Source of the DNA: a virus
Direction: 5' to 3' (one strand)
IMG/VR virus record: IMGVR_UViG_3300028827_000091
Location: 4,106 to 68,105 of that record
Length of the DNA: 64,000 nt
A program made the position numbers and the translations under genes. Of the stretch, positions 1 to 42,236 are shown piece by piece. Within the stretch, counting starts at the first letter, position 1. Every line of letters begins with the position of its first letter. The notes below the pieces were generated by a model. That model did no database searches. It was not told the origin of the DNA and saw only the letters and a list, made by a program, of their open reading frames with translations.

Positions 1-1
1 C

Positions 2-9
2 TATAAATA
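2..9 (+). promoter_or_regulatory. T4-type late promoter TATAAATA upstream of major capsid gene
   Basis: Exact TATAAATA, followed by SD AAGGAG and ATG at 57. Confidence 0.85.
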
Positions 10-56
10 ATAACAATACACTTGATTAACACAAATTACTAAGGAGAATAAAAGGT

Positions 57-1304
57 ATGTCTAATCAGCCACTATTGTCTGAAGAAGTAAAGCAGAAGTG
101 GGAACCTGTAATCAATGCTGAAGGTGTTGAACCTATCAAGAACAACACCATCAAGAATGCAACAATCCGTCTGCTTGAAAATACAGAAAAAGCTGCTCTC
201 GAAGAGAGCACAAACACTGGCAATATGCTTGCTGGTGGCGGTCAGGGCTTTGACCCAATCTTGATTTCAATGGTTCGTCGCACAATGCCATCTCTCATTG
301 CTCACGATATCATCGGCGTTCAGCCAATGAGCGGACCTACAGGTCTTATCTTTGCAATGAAGGCACACTACACCGGCGACCCACAAACAGGCGCAGAAGC
401 ATTTGGTACATCTGCACCTGACGAAACCTTCACTGGTGATGGCGCAGGTAACGCTGCACTGACAACAGACGGTGAACAACTCGGCGTGGATTCAGCGGTT
501 AACACTGCTGATGCTGGCGTTGCTCAGGACCCAGTGTTCCAGACCAACCCTTGGCCAGAAATGTCATTCAGCATCGAGAAGCAGTCTGTGACAGCAGGAA
601 CTCGTGCGCTGAAAGCAAAATACACAATCGAACTTGCTCAGGACCTCAAAGCAATCCACGGTATGGATGCAGAGGCAGAGCTTGCTAACATTCTTTCAAC
701 AGAAGTCGTTGGCGAAATCAACCGCGAAATCATTTCTAAGCTGCGTTCTCAGGCACGCACCGGTGCACAGAACACAAATGTTCCTGGCACATTCGATATG
801 ACTGGCGGCGCAAACGACGACACAGATGGTCGTTGGGAAATTGAAAAATATAAGAATCTGTATATGCAGATTGTTCGTGAAGCATCTACTATTGCTACAC
901 AGACACGTCGTGGTGTAGGTAACTTCATCATTTGTTCACCAATCGTAATGGCAGCTCTTGAGCAGGCAACCAAGCTCGACACTGCTGCAATCACAGGCAC
1001 TCTGCAAGGAGACTTTGTTGGTGCTACATTTGCTGGTGTTCTTGGTGGTCGCTTCAAAGTGTATGTTGACCCATATGCTGCATCAGACTTTGTGACTGTA
1101 GGCTACAAAGGCGCGAACGTTTATGATGCTGGTATGTTTTATTGCCCATATGTGCCATTGCAGATGATGAAAGCTGTCGGTGAAGAAGACTTCCAGCCTC
1201 GTTTGGGAATGAAGACTCGTTATGGAATCGCTTACAACCCATTTGTTAGCGGTACAGCAGGTCAGAATGATTATTACCGTGATTTTGCAGTTGTAGGAAT
1301 CTAA
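57..1304 (+). CDS. 23: T4-like major capsid protein gp23
   Basis: Motifs DPILISMVRR, GVQPMSGPTGLIFAM, RALKAKYTIELAQDLKAIHG, FYCPYVPL, FQPRLGMKTRYG. Confidence 0.97.
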   Translation: MSNQPLLSEEVKQKWEPVINAEGVEPIKNNTIKNATIRLLENTEKAALEESTNTGNMLAGGGQGFDPILISMVRRTMPSLIAHDIIGVQPMSGPTGLIFAMKAHYTGDPQTGAEAFGTSAPDETFTGDGAGNAALTTDGEQLGVDSAVNTADAGVAQDPVFQTNPWPEMSFSIEKQSVTAGTRALKAKYTIELAQDLKAIHGMDAEAELANILSTEVVGEINREIISKLRSQARTGAQNTNVPGTFDMTGGANDDTDGRWEIEKYKNLYMQIVREASTIATQTRRGVGNFIICSPIVMAALEQATKLDTAAITGTLQGDFVGATFAGVLGGRFKVYVDPYAASDFVTVGYKGANVYDAGMFYCPYVPLQMMKAVGEEDFQPRLGMKTRYGIAYNPFVSGTAGQNDYYRDFAVVGI

Positions 1305-1324
1305 GTTAATTCCTAAATATTGAT

Positions 1325-1355
1325 GAAAGGCGCTCGAAAGGGCGCCTTTCTTTTT
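1325..1355 (+). terminator. Rho-independent terminator after gp23
   Basis: GAAAGGCGCTC-GAAA-GGGCGCCTTTC followed by a T tract. Confidence 0.9.
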
Positions 1356-1369
1356 GCTCTCAAAGGATT

Positions 1370-2797
1370 ATGATGCTGGTATGTATATATACTATTATGG
1401 TAAACAAGGCAAAAGAATTATTGATAAGGAAAGACGGTAGAATCAACACAAGAAAAGTGATGAATGATTTTGCTTGGCTACGAAAGAACCACAAATCAGT
1501 ATATGATGACATTTTCGCCAAGACAGATTTTCTCGACAACAGCACAGACCAAAAAACACGGCTCTATGCGTACTTCAATAATTACACCGAGCCACAAGAA
1601 TGTGTTGTTTGTGGTCAAAAACATTTTCGATATATCAGAGAAACAAATACAATTTCAGATTGCTGTTCGATTCAGTGTAGTCTGAAAAACCCTCATCGAG
1701 CAGAAAAAATAAGTAGAACAAAAATAGAAAAGTTTCATCGAGGACACTGGCGAGATGAAATATTGGCAGATGCAGAAAAACTAGAAAAATATATCATCGA
1801 ACAGGCAGAGAAAAATCCGCATAAAGCTGCAAGACAAATGGGAGTGACGCCAAGAATCATATTGAATAGAGTACATTTATATAATTTGCAACACCTTCTT
1901 CACAATTCATATTTTATACCCGATTCTTCTAGTAGAGGAGAAAACGAAATTGTCGATTTTCTCAAGAGTGAACTCGGATTGAATGATATTGAAACCAGAA
2001 ATCGAACAATTTTATCTGATAATAAAGAATTAGACATATACATTCCATCATTGAATGTGGCTATAGAATTTGATGGTGTGTTCTGGCATTGTGAAGAAAA
2101 CGGCAAAGACAGGTATTATCACTTATCGAAAACAAATGAATGTGAAATGAAAGGAATTCAACTGTTTCACATTTTCGACAACGAATGGAATAATCCAACA
2201 AAGAAAGAAATATGGAAATCTCTCTTGCAACACAAAGCAAACAAATCTCAAACAAAGATTTATGCACGCAACTGTTCGATTATCAAAAATATCAACAATA
2301 CTTTCAAGAACGAATTTTTACTGAATAATCATTTGCAAGGGAAAGATAATTCAAATATCATCTATGGATTATGTGACGGGAAGGAAATCGTTGCAATGAT
2401 GTCCTTTGTCAAGTCTCGATTTACGCAAAAATATGATTGGGAATTGAGTAGGTTTTGCAGCAAGAACAACTATTCTATTGTCGGTGCAGCAAGCCGACTA
2501 TTGGAATCGTTCAAGAAAGACTACGGTGGCACAATCGTCTCTTATGCAAATCGTAGATGGAGTCAAGGAAACCTATATAGAAAACTTGGTTTTTCATATT
2601 CACACACCTCAAAGCCAAATTATTTCTACACAAAAGATTTTATCTGTCTAGAATCACGCCACAAATACCAAAAACACAAACTGAAAGAACTTCTTTCGTC
2701 ATATGATGAATCATTGACAGAAAATGAAAATATGAAGAAGAATGGCTTCTATAGAATATGGGATTGTGGAAATCTTGTTTTTGCTCTTTTTAATTGA
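1370..2797 (+). CDS. Hef-like free-standing homing endonuclease (Zn finger, Vsr/DUF559-like nuclease, GNAT-like C-terminus); likely start ATG 1397
   Basis: CxxC/CSxxC motifs; ELDIYIP..AIEFDGVFWH; KIYARNC; NHLQG; ELSRFC; RIWDCG. Confidence 0.75.
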   Translation: MMLVCIYTIMVNKAKELLIRKDGRINTRKVMNDFAWLRKNHKSVYDDIFAKTDFLDNSTDQKTRLYAYFNNYTEPQECVVCGQKHFRYIRETNTISDCCSIQCSLKNPHRAEKISRTKIEKFHRGHWRDEILADAEKLEKYIIEQAEKNPHKAARQMGVTPRIILNRVHLYNLQHLLHNSYFIPDSSSRGENEIVDFLKSELGLNDIETRNRTILSDNKELDIYIPSLNVAIEFDGVFWHCEENGKDRYYHLSKTNECEMKGIQLFHIFDNEWNNPTKKEIWKSLLQHKANKSQTKIYARNCSIIKNINNTFKNEFLLNNHLQGKDNSNIIYGLCDGKEIVAMMSFVKSRFTQKYDWELSRFCSKNNYSIVGAASRLLESFKKDYGGTIVSYANRRWSQGNLYRKLGFSYSHTSKPNYFYTKDFICLESRHKYQKHKLKELLSSYDESLTENENMKKNGFYRIWDCGNLVFALFN

Positions 2798-2828
2798 TTT
2801 TCAGCCTAACTTCTGACTATATACTATT

Positions 2829-4334
2829 ATGTATTCTAAATCTGTTCGCCAATTCGCAAAAAAATATCAATCAAAATCAGCAAACGCTTTCATACGATTA
2901 ACTGAAAGTGTATCGTTACTTAAAAAAGAAACAAAATGGTTAGATGAATTAAATCCATCATTAAAATTTCGAATTCTTTGTGTCGTAAATAATTTAGAAG
3001 AAATTCCTAAATGCAAACATTGCAATAATAATACGTCAATTGAGAAAAGCTATAAATTATCTTTCAATAAATTTTGTTCTGAAGCCTGCAGAAAAAATTA
3101 TCGTAAAAAAGAAACTATTTCAAACAGAAAAAATAATAAAAAATTGAACGATAGTGATTGGTTATATTCTGCTCGTATTGAAAAGCGAATGTCATTAGAA
3201 AATATAGCCGATATCTTAAATGTTCCAGTATATGCAGTAAAAGAGCACATCAAAAAATATAATATACCTGAGGTTAAATATAATGAAAGCGACTCTTTAA
3301 CTAGAACAATTCTATCTTCGAAAGAAAAAATGAAAGAACTCTATGAAAGCAAGGACATCCGCACAATAGCTGATGAATTCGGAGTGTCAAATTATTGCAT
3401 CTGGTACTGGTTGAGGAAACATAATATAGAGCCAAAAGCCTCTAATGGGTATCCACGAAAAGTAAAGAAAATAAGCAACGAAGAAGAAGAGCTTGTTAAT
3501 TTTCTTCGAGAGATTTACAATGGCGAAATCATAACATCTGATAGGTCATTGCTAAAAGGTTCAGAGATTGATATTGTCATACCTGATTTGAAAATGTGCT
3601 TTGAATACAACGGATTATATTGGCACAGTGAGAAATACAAAGATAAGAATTATCATTCAAACAAAACAAAAGAAGCAAAGAAGCAAGGATATACACTATA
3701 TCATATTTTTTCTGATGATTGGAATTTGAAGAATAAAATATGGAAAAGCAGAATAAAGCATCTACTTGGTGTGACCGAACACAAAATTTATGCGAGAAAA
3801 TGCGTAGTCAAAGAGATTAGTTCTCAAATCAAAAATAAATTCTTAGAAGAAAACCATTTGCAAGGGAAAGATAAATCATCTTTCCGATTTGGATTATTCT
3901 TCAACAATGAACTTGTTGCTGTTATGACTTTTGGCAAATCACGATTCAATAGAAATATCGATTGGGAACTTGTACGATATGCGTGCCTAAATAATCATTC
4001 AATTGTAGGAGGATTCTCAAAACTTCTGACGGCAGCACGAAAAAAACTAAAGAATGGAACAATTGTCACATATGCAGATAATTCGTATTCTGATGGTAAT
4101 GTGTATCTTACTAATGGTTTCGTTGCTATTGCATCTTATCCAGCAGGATACAAATATACGAAAGATATGATGAAACGTGAAAACAGATTAAATTTCACAA
4201 AGCAACGCCTCAAAGCCAAATATAAAGATAAGAATTTTGCAGGAATGACTGAAAAGGATATATGTGAATCTCTAGGATACACACGAATTTGGGATTGTGG
4301 CACAACAACCTATGTCTTGGACAATTCTATATAG
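2829..4334 (+). CDS. Second Hef-like homing endonuclease (paralogue of 1370..2797, with HTH repeats)
   Basis: EIDIVIP..FEYNGLYWH; KIYARKC; NHLQG; RIWDCG. Confidence 0.75.
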   Translation: MYSKSVRQFAKKYQSKSANAFIRLTESVSLLKKETKWLDELNPSLKFRILCVVNNLEEIPKCKHCNNNTSIEKSYKLSFNKFCSEACRKNYRKKETISNRKNNKKLNDSDWLYSARIEKRMSLENIADILNVPVYAVKEHIKKYNIPEVKYNESDSLTRTILSSKEKMKELYESKDIRTIADEFGVSNYCIWYWLRKHNIEPKASNGYPRKVKKISNEEEELVNFLREIYNGEIITSDRSLLKGSEIDIVIPDLKMCFEYNGLYWHSEKYKDKNYHSNKTKEAKKQGYTLYHIFSDDWNLKNKIWKSRIKHLLGVTEHKIYARKCVVKEISSQIKNKFLEENHLQGKDKSSFRFGLFFNNELVAVMTFGKSRFNRNIDWELVRYACLNNHSIVGGFSKLLTAARKKLKNGTIVTYADNSYSDGNVYLTNGFVAIASYPAGYKYTKDMMKRENRLNFTKQRLKAKYKDKNFAGMTEKDICESLGYTRIWDCGTTTYVLDNSI

Positions 4335-4337
4335 AGG

Positions 4338-4345
4338 CATAAATA
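4338..4345 (+). promoter_or_regulatory. Late promoter variant CATAAATA
   Basis: Same octamer recurs before other late genes (49025, 52630, 55867, and 61483 on the minus strand). Confidence 0.6.
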
Positions 4346-4349
4346 AAAT

Positions 4350-4805
4350 ATGTCCGCAATAAATTATTCTCTAAGAAATAATTTTCAGTTTGTTCTAAGC
4401 AATGCTCCGATTACATCTTTCACAGCAACAGGAGTATCGCTGCCAACAATTTCTATAAATCCTACACTTTATCCTACAAGAACACACGACATTAAAACTC
4501 CAGGTGAAAAAATCGAATTTGACCCAATAAATGTAGAGTTTATTGTTGAAGAAAATTTGAGCAACTATAAAGAAATGTATGACTGGATTCTTAAATGCAC
4601 ATCATACAATGGCAATAAAATGAATGATATTTTTGCTGATGCTTCTTTAATAATACTCTCAAATAACAAACAGCCTTTAAGAACAATCAGATTTGAAGGC
4701 ATCTTTCCTGGAATTCTTTCAGAAATTCAGTTTTCTACTCAAGATAGTGAACAGAACATTTCTAACGTAACATTCTACTACACGCGCTTCTTATTCGTCA
4801 ACTAA
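4350..4805 (+). CDS. 3: Tail completion / tube terminator gp3-like
   Basis: PGEKIEFDPINVEFIVEENLSNYKEMYDW; DASLIILSN; synteny gp23-gp3-uvsY-uvsW. Confidence 0.8.
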   Translation: MSAINYSLRNNFQFVLSNAPITSFTATGVSLPTISINPTLYPTRTHDIKTPGEKIEFDPINVEFIVEENLSNYKEMYDWILKCTSYNGNKMNDIFADASLIILSNNKQPLRTIRFEGIFPGILSEIQFSTQDSEQNISNVTFYYTRFLFVN

Positions 4806-4808
4806 TTC

Positions 4809-4837
4809 TTGACAGACCAACGAAGAAGTGGTAGAAT
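4809..4837 (+). promoter_or_regulatory. Sigma70-type promoter of uvsY (leaderless)
   Basis: TTGACA-N17-TAGAAT with ATG 7 nt after the -10 box. Confidence 0.75.
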
Positions 4838-4844
4838 TTTTCCT

Positions 4845-5243
4845 ATGAATCTCAAAGAACTGCAACGAATGGTCAAGAAGGAAATTCGAATAGACGAAAA
4901 CAATCTCGACAAATCAGCAATCAGCATTCCTATTCTACACAGCAAATATCTCCAACTTCTTCACGAATCACAAATGAAATGCGTCAAACTGAAAGCTGAA
5001 TATGACCAGATATATCGAACAAAATACATTTATTATAGAAACGACCACAATATCATTTTCAAATCGAAATCTGAAATAGAAGTGATGGTAGATGGCGATG
5101 GTGAAGTTCAAGAAAAAAGAATGAAACTCGAATATGAAAAAAGCAAAGCAGAATATCTTGAAAGTGTCATTAAAATGATAGGCGGTCTTTCGTTTCTGAT
5201 TCGCGATGCAATCGAATGGAAAAAATTCCAAGCAGGTATGTAG
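4845..5243 (+). CDS. uvsY: Recombination mediator UvsY
   Basis: IPILHSKYL, IRDAIEWKKFQAG; synteny. Confidence 0.88.
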   Translation: MNLKELQRMVKKEIRIDENNLDKSAISIPILHSKYLQLLHESQMKCVKLKAEYDQIYRTKYIYYRNDHNIIFKSKSEIEVMVDGDGEVQEKRMKLEYEKSKAEYLESVIKMIGGLSFLIRDAIEWKKFQAGM

Positions 5244-5310
5244 AAATTTCAGAAAAAGTGGTATGTTTTTCTGAAATTCTAACCTACAAATTTACATAGA
5301 ATATTGTTGT

Positions 5311-6810
5311 ATGACTGAGAAAAAAGCTGATATAATTATTCATAAGGTTAACGATGTCTATGTATGGGTAGAGTGTGAGAATTCTATCGCATTTGAGCTA
5401 GATGAATATTTTACTTTCTTTGCTCCAAATTATAGATTTATGCCCAAATACAAGAACAAAGTCTGGGACGGGAAGATTCATCTTTTCTCTGTGCGAACAA
5501 GACAAATCTTCTTGGGGCTCGTTCCATACATTCAAAAGTTTTCTCAAAGGTTCGGATATTCTTGTTCTATAGACAAAGATGTTCTGAACAAAAAGAAAAT
5601 CGAACCCAGAATAGTAAAGCAATTCCTTAAAGAACTTCACATTCATTCATCTGGAAAAAAACTTCCACCATACGACTTCCAAATGTTTGCCCTTTGGTGT
5701 GCAATGACACACAAAAGAACAATAATTCTATCTCCAACTTCTTCTGGAAAATCACTAATAATCTATGCGCTTTGTCGCTGGTTTCAAATCATACTCCCAA
5801 AAAACAAAAAAATTCTCATTCTTGCGCCTAGAACCGGGCTTGTCAAACAAATGGAATCTGATATGAAAGACTATTCATCAGAAGTTTCTTGGAACACAAA
5901 GAATGAAGTTCATACGATTATGGGAGGAAGAAAAAAGACATCTGATGCGCAAATCTATATCAGCACCTGGCAAAGCATCTATAGAATGAAGGAATCTTAT
6001 TTCGAACAATTTGGTGCAATCATTGTCGATGAAGTTCACGAAGCAGAGGCTTCATCTATCTGCAAGATAATGGAAAATCTTGTTGATTGTCCTAATAGAA
6101 TTGGTCTGACTGGCACACTACGAGATTCGAGAACATCGAAACTCACACTCGAAGGATTGTTCGGCCCAGCAAAAAGAATGACAACAACAAATGAACTGAT
6201 GGAAAGAAAAATTGTTGCAAAACTTAAAATTCAAGGTCTTTGTCTTGTCTACACCGATGAAGAAAAGAAAGCACTGAGAAAGGCAAAATACAAGCAAGAA
6301 ATTGATTGGCTCGTTGACAACACAAGAAGAACAGATTTCATTGCGAAACTTGCTGTCGTGCAGAAAAAGAACGGACTTATCCTTTTCAATTTTATCAAGC
6401 ACGGAAAATCTATATGCAATAGAATAAAACAACTCGACCCTTCAAGAAAAGTCTATTTTGTTGACGGCTCGGTATCTGCAGACAAAAGAGAAGAAATACG
6501 TCACCTGGTAGAAAGAGGCAAGAATGTCATTGTGGTTGCTTCTTATGGAACATTTTCTACAGGAATTTCAATCAAGAACATTCATTGGATTCAGTTCGCA
6601 TCACCTACAAAATCAAAAATACGAACATTGCAGTCAATAGGCAGAGGACTTAGAATCAACAAAGAAAAAAACTCTGTTATCTTATACGACATCGCTGATG
6701 ATTTATCTTGGAAAAGACACGAAAACTATTCTCTGAAACATTTTTCTTCACGCATTGACTTCTACAATCGTGAGAAGTTCGAATTCAAAATGAAACGAAT
6801 TCGAATCTGA
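5311..6810 (+). CDS. uvsW: SF2 DNA helicase UvsW
   Basis: WDGKIHLF, SPTSSGKS, DEVH, LQSIGRGLR. Confidence 0.95.
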   Translation: MTEKKADIIIHKVNDVYVWVECENSIAFELDEYFTFFAPNYRFMPKYKNKVWDGKIHLFSVRTRQIFLGLVPYIQKFSQRFGYSCSIDKDVLNKKKIEPRIVKQFLKELHIHSSGKKLPPYDFQMFALWCAMTHKRTIILSPTSSGKSLIIYALCRWFQIILPKNKKILILAPRTGLVKQMESDMKDYSSEVSWNTKNEVHTIMGGRKKTSDAQIYISTWQSIYRMKESYFEQFGAIIVDEVHEAEASSICKIMENLVDCPNRIGLTGTLRDSRTSKLTLEGLFGPAKRMTTTNELMERKIVAKLKIQGLCLVYTDEEKKALRKAKYKQEIDWLVDNTRRTDFIAKLAVVQKKNGLILFNFIKHGKSICNRIKQLDPSRKVYFVDGSVSADKREEIRHLVERGKNVIVVASYGTFSTGISIKNIHWIQFASPTKSKIRTLQSIGRGLRINKEKNSVILYDIADDLSWKRHENYSLKHFSSRIDFYNREKFEFKMKRIRI

Positions 6811-6922
6811 GGAGGCCAGCGGCGCGGAGGGTGCTGATTCCGAAAAGGGGACAACACCGAAACATCAAGGAAAGGTCAAGGCCATCTTTCTTTTTCTTTT
6901 TTTCTAGCTCAATTTTTCAACA

Positions 6923-7136
6923 AATGTAGAAGACCGAATCAATTCGTCTAATGTAGAAGACCGACATCTGCTAATGTAGAAGGCGAAGCCGAAGGCGTAG
7001 CCGCACGGACTGTCAAGGCGGAGAAGTTCTGAGTGAGGACGAAGTCCGAGCGAAGGCATCGAAGGACGAAGTCCGAGATGCAAAATAGTTACCAAGATGG
7101 TTTTTCTTTTTTTTGGTCGTTCGCATCGGCTTCGCC
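6923..7136. repeat. Three AATGTAGAAG direct repeats plus an array of GNA-triloop mini-hairpins; candidate replication origin
   Basis: Repeats at 6923, 6950, 6973; GGC-GAA-GCC 6982, GGC-GTA-GCC 6994, GGAC-GAA-GTCC 7037 and 7064, inverted copy 7128. Confidence 0.55.
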
Positions 7137-7205
7137 TCTGCTCACTATAAGCAACCAAGATGGTATAGATGAAGGGATTAGCAATAAAGGATTGTTAATA
7201 ACGAA

Positions 7206-7604
7206 TGGTGGGGAGGACTTTAACCTCCAGCTCCCACTACCCCGGACTCGCGTTTCCACTTGTCCCTCGCTGTTCGCCACTATAGCTCTAAGGCAACCAT
7301 ATCTGATTTCGGAATCTCCGTTTTCGTAGATTCCGCCGATAACAGATTTAGGTTATGGCTCCGGTGCCCTATTTGATTATGCACGATTAAGTTAACACAA
7401 TCAAGGGTTATTCTTGAAGAAAAAACAATGTTACAAGAACACTGCTTGCCCAAATCTATCATTGGTAAGTGACGACAAATTTGAGCGCGATTCTCCTACC
7501 CCGGTAAAGTAGTTTATCGCCGACACCTTTTGACGGGTGACGTATTCCGAACAAACATATCCGATTGCGGAATTCAATCAAAAAGGATATGCCTTACCAA
7601 TTTC
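7206..7604 (-). ncRNA. Putative ~400-nt structured antisense RNA with a tRNA-like 3' end
   Basis: Consensus promoter upstream; pairings ATTGGTAAG/CTTACCAAT, GCATATCC/GGATATGT, CGGAATCT/AGATTCCG; ends GGAGG-TTAAAGT-CCTCC-CCACCA. Confidence 0.55.
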
Positions 7605-7610
7605 TAACAC

Positions 7611-7639
7611 ATTATATACGACTATTTATACAATGTCAA
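7611..7639 (-). promoter_or_regulatory. Divergent consensus sigma70 promoter with an embedded late TATAAATA
   Basis: Minus strand TTGACA-N17-TATAAT; TATAAATA at 7623-7630 inside the spacer. Confidence 0.85.
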
Positions 7640-7726
7640 GTCTCAAGATAGAAAATAAATTTCTACACTGGTAATATATAGTGATTGAAAACTCTATTTT
7701 CAAGTCCTCAGGTAAAAAACTTTATC

Positions 7727-7755
7727 TTGACACTTTCACCGTAAATCTATATAAT
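7727..7755 (+). promoter_or_regulatory. Sigma70 promoter for gp55
   Basis: TTGACA-N17-TATAAT. Confidence 0.85.
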
Positions 7756-7793
7756 TCATATCTATACTGCATCGGTATAGACTTAGGAGAAAT

Positions 7794-8360
7794 ATGAACA
7801 AAACGAAAGATACTTCAACACATTACGTTTCAAACAAAGAGTTTCTACAAGACTTCATTGAATATAAAAAAGCAGTTTCAGACGCCGAACGTGAAGGTAA
7901 GCCCAAACCAAGATTGCCAGATTCAATAGGAATAAAAATAATGGCAATTGCGGAAAGGTTGTCGTTCAAGCCGAATTTCATCAATTATTTTTTCCGAGAA
8001 GAGATGGTTGAAGATGCAATAGAAAATTGTATAATGTATGCCGATAACTTCGACCCCGAAAAGAGTAAAAATCCTTTTTCGTACTTTACTCAAATATGTT
8101 ATTTTGCCTTCATTCGGCGCATCCAAAAAGAGAAGAAACATTTTCAGACCAAAGTCAAATATGTTCAGCGTGCATCAACACTTCTTCAAGAATCATCTAT
8201 TCAAGACCACGACACAGACGAAGACTATAAGAATTCATATCTTGAATTTTTGAGAGGATTCTATGATGTGGAGCTTGATGAAGAAGATGAGAAAAAAGAA
8301 AGAAAGAAAAGAGAAACAAAAACAACAACGGTTGACCTGACAGAGGTATGTGATGGCTAA
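7794..8360 (+). CDS. 55: Late transcription sigma factor gp55
   Basis: HYVSNKEF, KPNFINY, NFDPEKSKNPFSYFTQICYFAFIRRIQKEKK. Confidence 0.95.
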   Translation: MNKTKDTSTHYVSNKEFLQDFIEYKKAVSDAEREGKPKPRLPDSIGIKIMAIAERLSFKPNFINYFFREEMVEDAIENCIMYADNFDPEKSKNPFSYFTQICYFAFIRRIQKEKKHFQTKVKYVQRASTLLQESSIQDHDTDEDYKNSYLEFLRGFYDVELDEEDEKKERKKRETKTTTVDLTEVCDG

Positions 8361-9426
8361 AATCGCTATTCTTGGAGATACACATTTTGGTGCAAGGAAT
8401 GATTCAGAAGTGTTCAATGAATATTTCTTCAAGTTCTACGAAAATGTGTTTTTTCCGTATTGTGTAGAAAATGGCATTTCTAGAATCATTCAGACGGGCG
8501 ATTTTATGGATAGAAGAAAAAGCGTCAATTTCAAAATTCTTCACGAAACAAACAGAAGGTTTATGGATAAGCTCGCAGAGTTGATTCCTGATATTAAAAT
8601 TGATATGATTCCTGGAAATCACGACATCTACTATAGATACACAAACGAGATAAATTCTTTGAAAGAATTGTTTTCTTGGAGGGATTTTGTCGTTGTTCAC
8701 GACGAACAACCTACGACAATTGAAATTGATGGACTCAAAATTGATATGATTCCTTGGATTAACAAATACAATTTCAAGAATACTTTAGAATTCATTGAAA
8801 ACAGTATGAGCGACGTTTGTGTCGGTCACTTTGAAATTGTAGGTTTTGATATGCAGGCTGGAATCCCAGGACACGGCGGCCTAGATAGAAAGATATTCAG
8901 TCATTATGACTTGGTTCTTTCGGGCCACTATCATACAAAATCTGAAAAAGGAAACATACGGTATGTCGGTACGCCATATGAAATAACTTGGAGTGATTAT
9001 GACGACCCGAAAGGATTTCACGTTCTTGATACAGAATCAAGAGAATTAGAATTTATCAAGAATCCTTATAAAATGTTTCATAAAGCATTCTTTTGTTCAG
9101 ATGTCGATTATGAAGAATTTGATTTCAAAGAGCTAGAGGGCGGCATCGTGAAGGTCATTGTCAAAGATAGAAACGATAGCAAAAAATATGACTGGTTCTT
9201 AGATAAAATTATTGAAGCAATGCCGAATGATTTTTCTGTCGTTGAATCGGATGTTGTTCTAGTTGAAGGCGTTGATGCAGAATCCTTTGAGGCTCTAGAT
9301 ACTTTCACTGTTCTGAGAAATGCAGCAGCATCTGTTGCTGAATCAGAATCTCTCAACAAAAAGAAAATGCAGTCATTCATTCAAGAACTCTACACAGAAG
9401 CAGTGGCCCAAGGAAGAGACCAGTAG
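8350..9426 (+). CDS. 47: Recombination endonuclease gp47 (Mre11/SbcD-like)
   Basis: GDTHFG, GDFMD, GNHD, SGHYH. Confidence 0.93.
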   Translation: MMAKIAILGDTHFGARNDSEVFNEYFFKFYENVFFPYCVENGISRIIQTGDFMDRRKSVNFKILHETNRRFMDKLAELIPDIKIDMIPGNHDIYYRYTNEINSLKELFSWRDFVVVHDEQPTTIEIDGLKIDMIPWINKYNFKNTLEFIENSMSDVCVGHFEIVGFDMQAGIPGHGGLDRKIFSHYDLVLSGHYHTKSEKGNIRYVGTPYEITWSDYDDPKGFHVLDTESRELEFIKNPYKMFHKAFFCSDVDYEEFDFKELEGGIVKVIVKDRNDSKKYDWFLDKIIEAMPNDFSVVESDVVLVEGVDAESFEALDTFTVLRNAAASVAESESLNKKKMQSFIQELYTEAVAQGRDQ

Positions 9427-12015: not shown

Positions 12016-12024
12016 ATCTTTTTC

Positions 12025-12080
12025 TTGACAGCATTGTCTACTTCGTGTAGACTCTTGGCAGTGAGTGAGTGAAAAGGAGT
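12025..12080 (+). promoter_or_regulatory. Early promoter and leader, copy 1 of a 44-bp repeat
   Basis: TTGACA-N17-TAGACT; 12037-12080 identical to 14240-14283. Confidence 0.8.
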
Positions 12081-12090
12081 TGATTTCGTA

Positions 12091-14220
12091 ATGATAAATA
12101 AATCCACTGACGTTCAAAAGAAGACAGCAATTCTTGCGCGTATGATGGCAAAAGAGAATCTTGTTGTAAGATTTGCCAATGCGCAGACAGCTAGCTTTAA
12201 TCCTGAGAAACGCGTCTTGACGCTGCCAAATTTTGTTAAAGAAACCCCTGATTATGTTCGTTTTGGTTTCAATGCACACGAGATTGCGCACGCAATTTTC
12301 ACTCCTCCTGGTCATAAAGTTACTTCTCTTCTCAACATTCTTGAAGATATCCGGATTGAAAAGTTAATCAAGCGGAAATATAAAGGTTCTGCTGTTTTTA
12401 TTGGTCAGATGTATGAATATCTCTGGGCCAATAATTTCTTTGGTGTGGATGAAATTTCAATCAAGAAAATGTCATTCCTTGACCGCTTGAATGTTTGGGC
12501 CAAGTGTGGTGAATATGTCGAGCTCGACATTCCTTTCAGTGATGAAGAGCAGGAACTTGTTGAAAAAGCATTCTTGACAAGCAGTTTCAATGATGTTCTT
12601 GCTCTCGAAAAAGAATTTAAGAAGTATCTGAAGAAGGAAAAAGAAAATTCCACCAGCGAGCTGCCAGAGTTTGAACCAGTGCTCGAAATACCGGGCGATG
12701 AAGACGTCACTGAGAGTCCAGATATTCCAGAAATGGATAATCAGTCCAACAAATCACTTTCAGATAATGAAGAAGATGATGATGAGGAGCCAAATGAAGA
12801 GCCAGTTGAAATTACCGCTGGTGGAGGCGAAGCATCAGAGACAGCAGAAAATGAAGAAAGTGAAAGTGGTTCTGTCGAATCCTCAGAGGACGAAGATGAT
12901 GAAGATGATGAAGATGAGGATGATGAAGAGCCAGTCGCTGAGACAATGGTGCACCTTAAAGAAAAAACAAAAGAATTGCTTGATGATTCTTCTACAGGAA
13001 GCGAGGATATTCTTGTAGGTACATTTGACGAAGAAGAGCACGTCATTAAATCTTCTGATTTCTGGGAGTATATTGAGACACTCAGCTCCTTTGAAGCAGG
13101 TAAGAATAGGTTAGATTTCAAAGAATTCTTGATGGCTGTCAAGCCACAGGTTTCATATATGGTTAAGCAGTTTGAGCAGAAGAAGCGTGCTACAGAATGG
13201 CGTGACACTTCTTCTCATAAAACAGGAGAACTTGATATTTCACGTCTCTCCGAATATCGTTTTTCAGATGATATTTTTATGCGTGAAGATATCTTTCCTG
13301 AAGGCAAGAATCACGGACTTGTTCTGGTCATTGATTTTTCTGCTTCAATGATTGAACAGATTTCTGGAGTTTGCAAGCAGGCCATCTTTCTTTCAATGTT
13401 TGCAAGGCAGGCAGACATTCCTTTGAAAGTGTATGGATTCACTTCCTCCTTTAAGGTTAATGCACTCAAGAAAAAATTAGGCATTGACAAAGAATTTACT
13501 CCAGGTGAATATTCAGAGGTTTGTGCACCTGCAAATGAAGTCGGCATTTTCGAGCTCATTGATACATTGAGCCATATTAAGGATTTCGAGCGGTCAATTT
13601 TTCAGCTCTACAATGTTGATTCTTGGTTCTATCCGATGAGCGGCGGTACACCTCTCGATTTGACAGCAATCATCCTTTCAAATGTTATTGCGAAGTGGAA
13701 AGAGATGAATGGAATTGAAATTGTTTCTTCAGTGTTCTTGACTGATGGTGCTTCTTCCACTCCTACAGTTTGGGATGCTTCTCATAATCGTGTTTCCAAT
13801 TTCTACGGTCGGCACGCCACCTTTGTTGATGTCATCACACGCAAAAGGTATTATAGGGGCGATTATCCCTACTACACAGAGATTGCATATGACATCTACA
13901 AGTCTCGTACTTGCTCGTCTATTACTGTCATTTATATGAAGAATACTCGGTCATTGCTAAATCATTTCTTCCATTACAGAGAAGATGAGAAAAAGGCTGC
14001 TGCTAGAGCGGAACTCCAGAGTAAGGGTCTTTTTGTTGTTGAAGACTATATGAATGGCGTCGTTGATTTATATCTTGCAATGAAAGACAAAGATATTTTT
14101 TCAGCAGCAATGGAACTTGAGATTAAGGAAGGCCGGGCTCGTTCTTCCTTCAAGAAGATGGCTCGAGCAAGGTCATCTAGCAAAGTGTTTGTATCGCTGT
14201 TTATGGATACAATTGCGTAA
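12091..14220 (+). CDS. CobT-like VWA protein with N-terminal HExxH motif and acidic linker
   Basis: HEIAH, NILEDIRIEK, MIDAS DFSASM, GGTPL, LTDG. Confidence 0.8.
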   Translation: MINKSTDVQKKTAILARMMAKENLVVRFANAQTASFNPEKRVLTLPNFVKETPDYVRFGFNAHEIAHAIFTPPGHKVTSLLNILEDIRIEKLIKRKYKGSAVFIGQMYEYLWANNFFGVDEISIKKMSFLDRLNVWAKCGEYVELDIPFSDEEQELVEKAFLTSSFNDVLALEKEFKKYLKKEKENSTSELPEFEPVLEIPGDEDVTESPDIPEMDNQSNKSLSDNEEDDDEEPNEEPVEITAGGGEASETAENEESESGSVESSEDEDDEDDEDEDDEEPVAETMVHLKEKTKELLDDSSTGSEDILVGTFDEEEHVIKSSDFWEYIETLSSFEAGKNRLDFKEFLMAVKPQVSYMVKQFEQKKRATEWRDTSSHKTGELDISRLSEYRFSDDIFMREDIFPEGKNHGLVLVIDFSASMIEQISGVCKQAIFLSMFARQADIPLKVYGFTSSFKVNALKKKLGIDKEFTPGEYSEVCAPANEVGIFELIDTLSHIKDFERSIFQLYNVDSWFYPMSGGTPLDLTAIILSNVIAKWKEMNGIEIVSSVFLTDGASSTPTVWDASHNRVSNFYGRHATFVDVITRKRYYRGDYPYYTEIAYDIYKSRTCSSITVIYMKNTRSLLNHFFHYREDEKKAAARAELQSKGLFVVEDYMNGVVDLYLAMKDKDIFSAAMELEIKEGRARSSFKKMARARSSSKVFVSLFMDTIA

Positions 14221-14227
14221 ATTTTTC

Positions 14228-14283
14228 TTGACAAGAAGTTCTACTTCGTGTAGACTCTTGGCAGTGAGTGAGTGAAAAGGAGT
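14228..14283 (+). promoter_or_regulatory. Early promoter and leader, copy 2 of the 44-bp repeat
   Basis: TTGACA-N17-TAGACT and an identical leader ending in SD AAGGAG. Confidence 0.8.
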
Positions 14284-40915: not shown

Positions 40916-40944
40916 TTGACAACAAGAAAACAACAAATTATAAT
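40916..40944 (+). promoter_or_regulatory. Sigma70 promoter of the tRNA/tmRNA array
   Basis: TTGACA-N17-TATAAT. Confidence 0.85.
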
Positions 40945-40990: not shown

Positions 40991-41064
40991 GGGGCTGTAG
41001 TTCAGTTTGGGAGAACGCTTCCCTTGCAAGGAAGAGGTCGCCGGGTCGGAGCCGGCCAGCTCCA
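40991..41064 (+). tRNA. tRNA-Ala(TGC), no encoded CCA, atypical T-loop
   Basis: GGGGCTG/CAGCTCC with G3-U70; CTTCC-CTTGCAA-GGAAG. Confidence 0.88.
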
Positions 41065-41065
41065 C

Positions 41066-41158
41066 GCCTAACAAGATGAAAGCCTCCACGCGGCGTTAGG
41101 TGGTAACAGATGAATGACCTGTTTCGGTAGAGATAAGGGACATCTGGCTAATTTCATC
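41066..41158 (+). ncRNA. HDV-like (theta-type) self-cleaving ribozyme
   Basis: P1 GCCTAAC/GTTAGGT, P2 GATGAAA/TTTCATC, P3 GCC/GGC, L3 TCCACGC, J1/4 GG, P4 CAGATG/CATCTG, J4/2 GCTAA. Confidence 0.85.
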
Positions 41159-41167
41159 ATTTTGAAT

Positions 41168-41242
41168 GGGTCCGAAGCATTGTTGGCGATGCACCAGACT
41201 TTTAATCTGGGGAACGGGGTTCGACTCCCTGCGGGCCTACCA
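41168..41242 (+). tRNA. tRNA-Lys(TTT)
   Basis: CCAGA-CTTTTAA-TCTGG; TTCGA; CCA. Confidence 0.9.
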
Positions 41243-41246
41243 TTTT

Positions 41247-41321
41247 GCCCTTGTCGTTCAATGGATAGGACAACGGTCTTCTAAACCGTGAATCGGGGTT
41301 CGACTCCCTGCAAGGGCGCCA
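41247..41321 (+). tRNA. tRNA-Arg(TCT)
   Basis: ACGGT-CTTCTAA-ACCGT; CCA. Confidence 0.93.
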
Positions 41322-41353
41322 GTTTGAAAGCCAGGCTTTCAAATATTACAAAT

Positions 41354-41701
41354 GGGGCTGAAATAGTATCGATTAAGATTCGGAGCATTTGTAAGCACGC
41401 AGGTAGGCTGACCACCTTAAACGTTGGCAGTAAAATAGTCGCAAACGACGACGCACCGATAGCGCAAGCAGCGTAATCACCTCTATCAGATACTCGCCAT
41501 TCGGTGTTTGAAAAGAGGTCATTTAGAGTGGCTAGAATAGAATCATAGTGATAATTCTATTTGAAATTTTATCACTTGAGATATGGATTTGTATTTGCTG
41601 GTTTCGAGGCCATATCAAAAATTTAGGATAACCAGATAAGCGTGTAGAAATCACTTGTGAAGGTTTTAAGACGGCGGAGGCAGAGCCGCCCAGCTCCACC
41701 A
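41354..41701 (+). ncRNA. ssrA: tmRNA; tag ANDDAPIAQAA (41441-41476)
   Basis: 5' GGGGCTG, 3' CAGCTCCACCA with G3-U70; resume context TAGTC-GCA-AAC-GAC; tag ends in AA then stop. Confidence 0.93.
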
Positions 41702-42147: not shown

Positions 42148-42236
42148 GGGTTGGTGGCAGAATTGGCTAATGCACCGGGCTGTAACCCCGCAGTAGGTGT
42201 TAGACCTTGGAGGTTCGAGTCCTCCCCAACCCACCA
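42148..42236 (+). tRNA. tRNA-Tyr(GTA)
   Basis: Loop CTGTAAC, long variable arm, CCA. Confidence 0.88.

Follow-up and report, generated by a model that had tools for sequence, protein, structure and literature searches.

We analysed a 64,000-nucleotide (nt) stretch, called the window here, which covers positions 4106-68105 of a 68,105-bp IMG/VR record estimated to be 37% complete and which, judged by its genes, belongs to a marine T4-like phage. The genes for the UvsW helicase and the late sigma factor gp55 are separated in it by a 983-bp gap (6811-7793), within which a perfect early promoter on the minus strand is directed away from gp55 into gene-free DNA that folds significantly on the transcribed strand only. 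The position of this promoter is conserved in relatives and the RNA body is not, so that the conserved object appears to be the backward-facing early promoter, with a transcribed sequence that varies by lineage. We consider it quite possible, and tentatively prefer the reading, that an early non-coding transcript, real and specific to this lineage, arises here and acts in cis. The elements on which this reading is built are the following.

7639-7611, minus strand: sigma70-type early promoter, TTGACA-17 nt-TATAAT, 12/12 match
7630-7623, minus strand: T4-type late promoter motif TATAAATA, within the spacer of that promoter
7727-7755, plus strand: perfect early promoter of gp55 (12/12), partner of the minus-strand promoter
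7206-7604, minus strand: predicted body of the non-coding transcript, with a strand-specific fold; 3' end not established

An earlier, sequence-only reading of this DNA had described a perfect minus-strand sigma70 promoter, and this holds: all 12 positions match, and exact TTGACA-N16-18-TATAAT arrangements occur six times in the window against 0.02 expected (100 shuffles), far above chance. The copy at 7639-7611 is the only one of the six on the minus strand, the other five lying on the plus strand before genes or before the tRNA/tmRNA array. TTGACA/TATAAT is clearly the early promoter type of this phage, and as one copy (40916-40944, plus strand) heads the tRNA/tmRNA array, the class would drive stable-RNA as well as early genes here. 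Because the second perfect copy in the gap, at 7727-7755, drives gp55, the two promoters form a divergent pair, and their -35 regions are linked by an inverted repeat (7638-7650 / 7723-7735). From the minus-strand promoter the transcript is predicted to start at about G7604, 7 nt past the -10 box. The late motif, from which the sequence-only reading had proposed an RNA made throughout infection, is indeed present in the spacer, but only at the frequency of chance: TATAAATA occurs six times in the window against 3.17 expected, and at least six times in 14 of 100 shuffles. Expression throughout infection is therefore not supported, and a late start from the minus-strand site would be possible. 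The shorter motif ATAAATA is found 17 times on the plus strand and six times on the minus strand.

The region contains no credible open reading frame (ORF), in agreement with the sequence-only reading. The longest frame in the gap (6811-7793) has 98 amino acids (aa) on the plus strand; the minus-strand frames reach 60, 48 and 40 aa, and no Shine-Dalgarno motif was seen ahead of the ATG of the 60-aa frame. Scans of six small gap frames gave no Pfam match at E<=1 and a best E of 0.068 in PHROGs (five of the six frames were common to both scans), and tblastx of the gap against the gaps of relatives reached a best E of 0.027. A conserved small ORF thus does not explain the region.

The predicted RNA was then considered as a structure. 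Over 407 nt (7606-7200), the minus strand folded at -130.5 kcal/mol (z -3.80, 0/100 shuffles as good) and the plus strand at -102.2 kcal/mol (z -1.56, 7/100 shuffles as good). In sliding 150-nt windows over 7300-7549, z ranged from -3.4 to -3.6 on the minus strand and from -1.65 to +0.76 on the plus strand; windows of this size in flanking coding DNA mostly gave z between -2.9 and +1.7. The main helices and the stems named in the sequence-only reading are listed below.

7448-7486, minus strand: hairpin of 15 bp, 4 of them G·U; pair probability 0.99 on average
7423-7447, minus strand: hairpin of 10 bp, 2 of them G·U; probability 0.93
7367-7407, minus strand: hairpin of 9 + 4 bp, 2 of them G·U; probabilities 0.99 (9 bp) and 0.84 (4 bp)
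7311-7334, minus strand: 6-bp hairpin, the CGGAATCT/AGATTCCG stem of the sequence-only reading, probability 1.00
7461-7469 / 7593-7601, plus-strand letters: ATTGGTAAG / CTTACCAAT, 9 bp, the named outer stem
7556-7563 / 7585-7592, plus-strand letters: ACATATCC / GGATATGC, named stem
7310-7317 / 7328-7335, plus-strand letters: CGGAATCT / AGATTCCG, named stem

The three most probable helices hold eight G·U pairs in total, each of which would be an A·C mismatch if read on the other strand. All the nested stems that had been named are present, but each is, by our own estimate, at about chance level for 400 nt, and the 9-bp outer stem ATTGGTAAG/CTTACCAAT competes with the far more probable 15-bp hairpin; it is the fold of the whole region that is significant and strand-specific. 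A search of the whole window against Rfam 15 at gathering scores placed nothing in the gap, and at E<=10 on 6700-7900 the sole match was RgsA, which lies outside the RNA and whose 12 bits fall far short of its gathering score (88.4). The orphan status proposed for this RNA is thus upheld.

Conservation of the RNA body was assessed in two sets of relatives, 160 gp55 loci and 31 genome-contig loci from prokaryote assemblies. An identical copy of the gp55 protein of the window (P0001) is recorded on two contigs, the longer of 143,377 bp, and a fuller assembly of the phage therefore exists in public data; this contig, together with the gp55 relatives P0003-P0010 (55-67% identity), lies outside the relatives' DNA that was searched. 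A scan of viral contigs with a single protein gave no closer relative, and the best metagenome locus among the matches listed was 51% identical. Nothing homologous to the RNA body turned up: blastn against 50,697 phage records gave no match to it, related loci (first 80, later 160) searched by blastn and nhmmer yielded chance matches only (best E 0.59), and blastn and tblastx against the 31 further loci gave nothing. A covariance model made from the single sequence 7367-7520, run over 73 sources (626,626 bases, with the whole of genomes G001 and G004 included), recovered only itself. A conserved structured RNA would show itself by homologues with compensatory changes, and there was no homologue in the fetched relatives. 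Four DNA sequencing runs, all of one sample, yielded a few short contigs and no informative variation.

The closest relative (locus L002 in G001, a 142-kb genome with terminal repeats; gp55 69% identical) offers the most direct comparison. Its layout matches, with uvsW, a gap of about 670 bp without an ORF longer than 83 aa, and then gp55. The gap carries a minus-strand and a plus-strand promoter, each 11/12 and divergent, and G+C-rich GAA-loop hairpins adjoin uvsW. Its RNA shows the same strand difference in folding (z -1.38 on the minus strand against +0.83 on the opposite strand). The two RNAs do not align, however, beyond what shuffled sequence gives (local score 24 against a shuffle mean of 24.1); the covariance model on the L002 gap, with filters off, reached 1.7 bits at best (E 0.85), and Rfam found nothing there. 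Because a conserved structured RNA is normally recognisable at this distance, as are the tRNAs and tmRNA of both phages, the RNA body is not under family-wide constraint, and among the relatives compared it appears to be unique to this phage.

The promoter slot behaves otherwise. uvsW lies directly upstream of gp55 in 76 of the first 80 viral loci and in 143/160 loci overall, and 140 of the 143 loci that hold both genes have a plus-strand ORF of at least 100 aa in the gap between them. In three representatives that were scanned, this ORF matched phrog_471 in 3/3 and the Sm-like family PF16243 in 2/3; in S-PM2 the Sm-like gap gene is S-PM2d113. The gap gene encodes about 130 aa (for example L186 2075-2473 and L217 656-1048), and phrog_471 bears the annotation 'methylamine utilization'. 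A decayed Sm-like gene was tried as the content of the gap in the window and rejected: a profile of the gene found no remnant in the window's record or in the L002 gap, and phrog_471 had no match in the window's record (G000) and only one at E 0.004, elsewhere, in G001.

In the 160 loci, minus-strand promoter matches of at least 11/12 are concentrated in front of gp55, with 56 in the 100 nt before the gene and 20 in the preceding 300 nt; further off there are at most two per 100-nt bin, save for five in the first 100 nt of gp55. Among the 150 loci with at least 450 nt upstream of gp55, a minus-strand promoter before the gene matches in at least 10/12 positions in 101, in at least 11/12 in 71 and in 12/12 in 29. 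S-PM2 (11/12), HTVC008M (12/12) and the contig L217 from a metagenome-assembled genome (11/12) are examples, and the promoter often stands back to back with that of gp55. In S-PM2 (LN828717) it lies at about 74,904-74,932 (L186 2515-2543) and in HTVC008M (KC465899) at about 80,267-80,295 (L187 2416-2444). In the relatives it faces the Sm-like gene, which fits a cis-antisense geometry. The literature covered, which did not extend to the Syn9 transcriptome and genome papers or to supplements, holds no account of an antisense promoter before gp55, and within the same scope no paper places an origin there.

A separate feature was observed at the start sites of the relatives. A hairpin of 4-6 bp begins 0-3 nt past the minus-strand -10 box, and a TGT at offset 5-6, where the RNA is predicted to start, is conserved; examples are L052, L006, L028, L086, L217 (1060-1080) and L186 (2495-2515). 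Of 65 distinct sequences 46 have such a hairpin, compared with 244 of 955 random 30-mers, and 26 different 5' arms occur. Ten distinct arm pairs contain a minus-strand G·T and one an A·C, the control ratio being 276:339. As the 5' arm precedes the predicted start, this hairpin may act in the non-template DNA strand. The window and L002 lack it.

The preferred reading can now be stated in full. Host sigma70 RNA polymerase would start at about 7604, opposite the gp55 promoter, and transcription would run leftward, against nearly all genes. In relatives, the leftward promoter would read antisense into the Sm-like gene and then into uvsW. This phage and L002 lack the Sm-like gene there, and in this phage the transcript would instead cross about 400 nt of G+C-enriched DNA that forms a chain of long hairpins on the transcribed strand only, a chain that would prolong the life of the RNA. 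We infer that it could act in cis, either through leftward transcription as such or as an antisense RNA directed at the uvsW side, and would do so early in infection. In T4 the uvsW gene is a late one, and its helicase clears away the R-loops that early origins need (PMC3016281); keeping uvsW silent early would make sense. We consider the transcript real because its promoter is perfect, of the phage's own class and in a conserved position, and we prefer cis to trans because the RNAs of this phage and L002 show no likeness in sequence or structure and the complementarity to other phage transcripts does not exceed that of shuffles. What the sequences show is the promoter, the lack of genes, the folding on one strand, the conserved promoter position and a body that is not conserved; the existence of the transcript, its end point and its role are inferred.

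Several observations weigh against this reading. No terminator-like site is found in 6500-8100, so that none fixes the length of the RNA; the end of uvsW lies 794 nt from the inferred start with no such site between, and the transcript would have to cross about 800 nt, hairpin array included, before it meets uvsW. The RNA of L002 folds weakly (z -1.38). The slot is not universal, 49/150 loci having no match of at least 10/12, and in Melnitz-3 there is no match of even 9/12 between the small ORF and gp55. The covarying start-site hairpin of the relatives is left unexplained by the antisense idea, and a selected strand-specific structure fits a trans-acting RNA equally well.

The lack of conservation between the two closest genomes is also what would be expected if the body had no function, being a drifting spacer or debris from the loss of the Sm-like gene with a stray tRNA fragment (described below), such that only the promoter matters or the promoter itself is residual; it might, for example, aid the gp55 promoter via divergent transcription. 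The truncation of the tRNA-Tyr piece, the chance-level late motif and the estimated chance level of the individual named stems point the same way. This account has to contend, however, with a fold at z -3.8 that none of 100 shuffles equalled, with eight wobble pairs in the strongest helices that all favour the transcribed strand, with a promoter kept at 12/12, with a G+C content raised relative to the genome (0.40-0.49 across 6700-7600 against 0.33-0.37 in the flanking genes), and with the gap itself. ORFs of at least 110 aa lie nearly all on the plus strand of the window and genes are closely packed; 983 bp without genes are therefore exceptional in this genome. We regard a functionless body as somewhat unlikely.

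At its far end, the predicted RNA carries a second distinctive element (7206-7229).

7228-7212, minus strand: T-arm-like hairpin GGAGG-TTAAAGT-CCTCC, stem 7228-7224 / 7216-7212, 7-nt loop
7211-7206, minus strand: CCACCA, directly after the hairpin

Both parts had been noted in the sequence-only reading and are present as described, with a 5-bp stem and a 7-nt loop as in a T arm. The phage has a tRNA-Tyr gene of its own (42148-42236), with whose T arm the stretch agrees in 19/21 positions, and a further 10/10 bases agree across the CCA and the first trailer bases of that gene. The alignment has a score of 32, above all shuffles (19.6 +/- 2.4, maximum 30), and one of 200 control windows reaches 32. 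Both differences from the tRNA-Tyr T arm fall at loop positions that are conserved among the phage tRNA genes listed; all but a few of these genes have an encoded CCA behind them. The T stem and ACCA are just 2 nt apart, as the acceptor strand is 5 nt shorter than in tRNA-Tyr, and no 5' partner strand for a 7-bp acceptor stem was found; the element lacks an acceptor stem and has neither a D arm nor an anticodon arm. No cloverleaf was recognised: ARAGORN called no genes in 6700-7900, the tRNA model RF00005 had no match in the gap either at its gathering score or at E<=10, and tmRNA searches (RF00023, RF04321 and ARAGORN) found none in the gap, their sole matches in the window lying at 41013-41701. 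In the L002 gap, a tRNA-like piece scores at null level. We read the element as a copied fragment of the 3' end of tRNA-Tyr, in the transcribed orientation, which may mark, stabilise or protect a 3' end. A tRNA-like RNA was rejected as a candidate on account of the negative ARAGORN and Rfam results, the acceptor strand cut to 2 nt and the absence of the element from the closest relative.

Such an element could also belong to a trans-acting stable RNA of a new family, in which a T-arm/CCA module of tRNA origin would attract the enzymes that act on tRNA 3' ends and would set or protect the end of the RNA at 7206. A significant fold on the transcribed strand only, a promoter class shared with the tRNA/tmRNA array, the copying of the T arm, CCA and first trailer bases of tRNA-Tyr in the transcribed orientation, and the CCA encoded after nearly all listed tRNA genes would suit this idea. 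It is opposed by the failure of blastn over the 160 gp55 loci, and of the covariance model over 73 sources with the whole closest genome among them, to find a homologue, by the lack of any Rfam or ARAGORN match, and by the missing acceptor stem, the two T-loop differences and the 5 nt lost from the acceptor strand. The exact 17-nt hairpin has six matches in IMG/VR, every one in an unrelated context, and the L002 gap has no tRNA-like piece. Among the phage transcripts searched as targets, none offered more than 14 nt of complementarity, a length that the best shuffle matched. A trans-acting RNA is, in our view, distinctly unlikely. The sequence-only reading had likewise proposed for the RNA a tRNA-like CCA end set by tRNA-processing enzymes, and with no ARAGORN gene, no tRNA or tmRNA match and a T arm only, this part of it is not supported, and neither is expression throughout infection; the early promoter reading into gene-free, strand-specifically folding DNA stands. 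What had been observed is thus largely confirmed, and how it had been interpreted is partly supported.

Some observations on the stable RNAs of the two phages can be added. The array of about 29 tRNAs in the window begins 47 nt past the perfect early promoter at 40916-40944. Calls for the tmRNA conflict, Rfam giving a standard form at 41354-41701 (112 bits) and a permuted form at 41013-41476 (54 bits), and ARAGORN a permuted form at 41149-41567 with the tag ANDDAPIAQAA. For the tmRNA of G001, ARAGORN gives both standard and permuted calls, with the tag ANDDTPISAVA. Among its 42 tRNA calls in that genome is one with the anticodon TTA (138965-139035, complement; 'tRNA-Stop'), a possible ochre suppressor.

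Between the predicted RNA and uvsW lies a set of repeats that raises the question of a replication origin.

6923, 6950 and 6973 (6923-6984), plus strand: three 12-nt direct repeats AATGTAGAAGRC, spaced by 27 and 23 nt
6981-7137: G+C-rich GAA-loop mini-hairpins, both strands structured (z about -2.8 each)
6981-6992 / 7126-7137: perfect 12-bp inverted repeat enclosing the mini-hairpins
7036 and 7063: two exact copies of AGGACGAAGTCCGAG, which form GAA-loop mini-hairpins
7091 and 7154: palindrome ACCAAGATGGT, present twice, with a long T-run behind the first copy

The array of GNA hairpins reported in the sequence-only reading is there, with GAA loops at about 6981-7077, some 130 nt past the CCACCA. 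At up to one mismatch, AATGTAGAAGRC occurs seven times in the window against 0.72 expected, with its three exact copies at 6923-6984; these lie downstream of the transcript, on the way to uvsW, about 620 nt from the promoter.

The repeats and mini-hairpins at 6923-7137 could be elements of a replication origin, with the divergent promoter pair priming in both directions. This builds on the replication primer suggested in the sequence-only reading and resembles T4 oriE or oriF. An early promoter does aim at three 12-nt repeats and at a hairpin array that is rich in G+C and has a T-run next to it, and the locus is a point of transcriptional divergence beside uvsY and uvsW. In T4, oriE combines 12-nt iterons with an early-mode promoter, active origins lie at transcriptional divergence (PMC3016281), and oriF is located at uvsY (PMC3016281). 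The start hairpin of the relatives is biased towards G·T in the non-template strand, by 10 arm types to 1, as a structure in a displaced strand would be. On the other side, no A+T-rich unwinding element follows the promoter: a promoter, as T4 oriF/oriG-type origins have, is present, but the first 200 nt after it are not A+T-rich (GC 0.41 at 7400-7599 against 0.33-0.37 in the neighbours). The cumulative GC skew does not turn at the gap, either in the window's record or in the full-length relatives G001 and G004, the 12-nt repeats are absent from L002, most relatives carry a protein gene at the would-be origin site, and the repeats are about 620 nt away from the promoter. An origin at this site seems unlikely. 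Still less do we expect the fullest version, in which a new stable RNA, with a 3' end derived from the T-arm/CCA part of tRNA-Tyr and trimmed by tRNA end-processing enzymes, would have replaced the gene for the Sm-like RNA-binding protein in the conserved slot and, jointly with the neighbouring repeats and hairpins, would start or time replication, the divergent pair being the main origin of these phages; this we hold to be very improbable. For Syn9, a single theta origin has been predicted (PMC2984593).

GC skew on the plus strand was also followed along the window as such. It is about 0 to 0.07 at 1-9000 and 0.10-0.24 at 9000-58000, with genes on the plus strand on both sides, and in the 4 kb of the record to the left of the low-skew stretch it is back at 0.16. 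The low skew left of the gap is hence a local trough and not a change of sign.

The gap is set in the local order uvsY, uvsW, gap, gp55, gp47, gp46, of which the genes nearest to it are listed here.

4809-5243: uvsY, PF11056 match
5311-6810, plus strand: uvsW helicase gene, 41-44% identity to UvsW of cultured phages; the first gene that would be met in antisense by the minus-strand transcript
7794-8360, plus strand: gp55 late sigma factor gene

The phage itself is uncultured. The nearest cultured kin are the T4-like Pelagibacter phages Mosig and HTVC008M, the Methylophilales phage Melnitz and cyanomyoviruses of the Kyanoviridae, at 41-44% identity by UvsW and about 51-57% by gp55. Elsewhere in the window, the genes starting at 12091 and 14272 have nearly the same leader of about 45 nt (about 12020-12075 and 14225-14271), made up of a TTGACA box, a small palindrome CTACTTCGTGTAG and then CTCTTGGCAGTGAGTGAGTG, which resembles a promoter/leader cassette used repeatedly.

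By its sequence, the RNA fits no known family, every family feature tested being absent save the isolated T arm. ColE1 RNA II is a structured transcript of several hundred nt that is processed into a primer. The RNA described here is alike in concept, and the sequence-only reading had drawn this parallel; it differs in having no sequence or Rfam relation to RNA II and no evident antisense partner RNA. The stable RNAs C and D of T4 lie within its tRNA cluster, are co-transcribed with tRNAs and are linked to tRNA processing, whereas the present locus is 34 kb from the tRNA array and on the opposite strand.

In the way it would work, the RNA seems closest to the T4 origin transcripts and to CfrI of S-PM2, which are known early non-coding or antisense transcripts of phages. 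At T4 oriF/ori(uvsY), a promoter and an unwinding element yield an R-loop primer (PMC3016281). The T4 origin transcripts (oriE, oriF/ori(uvsY)) share with the present case a promoter for host polymerase that reads into non-coding or origin DNA beside uvsY/uvsW, with 12-nt direct repeats nearby and a site of transcriptional divergence (PMC3016281); unlike them, the present locus has no A+T-rich element and no skew signal, and its repeats are absent in L002. CfrI is an antisense RNA of cyanophage S-PM2 that overlaps psbA and a homing-endonuclease gene (PMC2984593, PMC5931967). It too is a non-coding RNA of a few hundred nt that runs against gene direction in a marine T4-like phage. As far as those accounts describe it, CfrI lies at another locus, overlaps genes and has no sequence relation to the RNA here, which overlaps none for at least about 800 nt.

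Seen by itself, the RNA of about 400 nt is a plausible candidate, predicted from the DNA and an orphan without conservation, and it matters mainly as an unusual version of the promoter slot; the conserved slot is the more general and testable result. Since the slot is kept even where the gene that it faces is gone, a role for the act or the product of leftward transcription itself is suggested. Marine T4-like phages infect SAR11, OM43 and picocyanobacteria, and they are not known to have the MotA/AsiA middle mode of T4. Little is known of the timing of early and late expression in these phages or of where their replication starts. A fixed, backward-facing early promoter before the late sigma gene and behind uvsW would provide a handle on both questions, and S-PM2 and HTVC008M, which carry it, are in culture.

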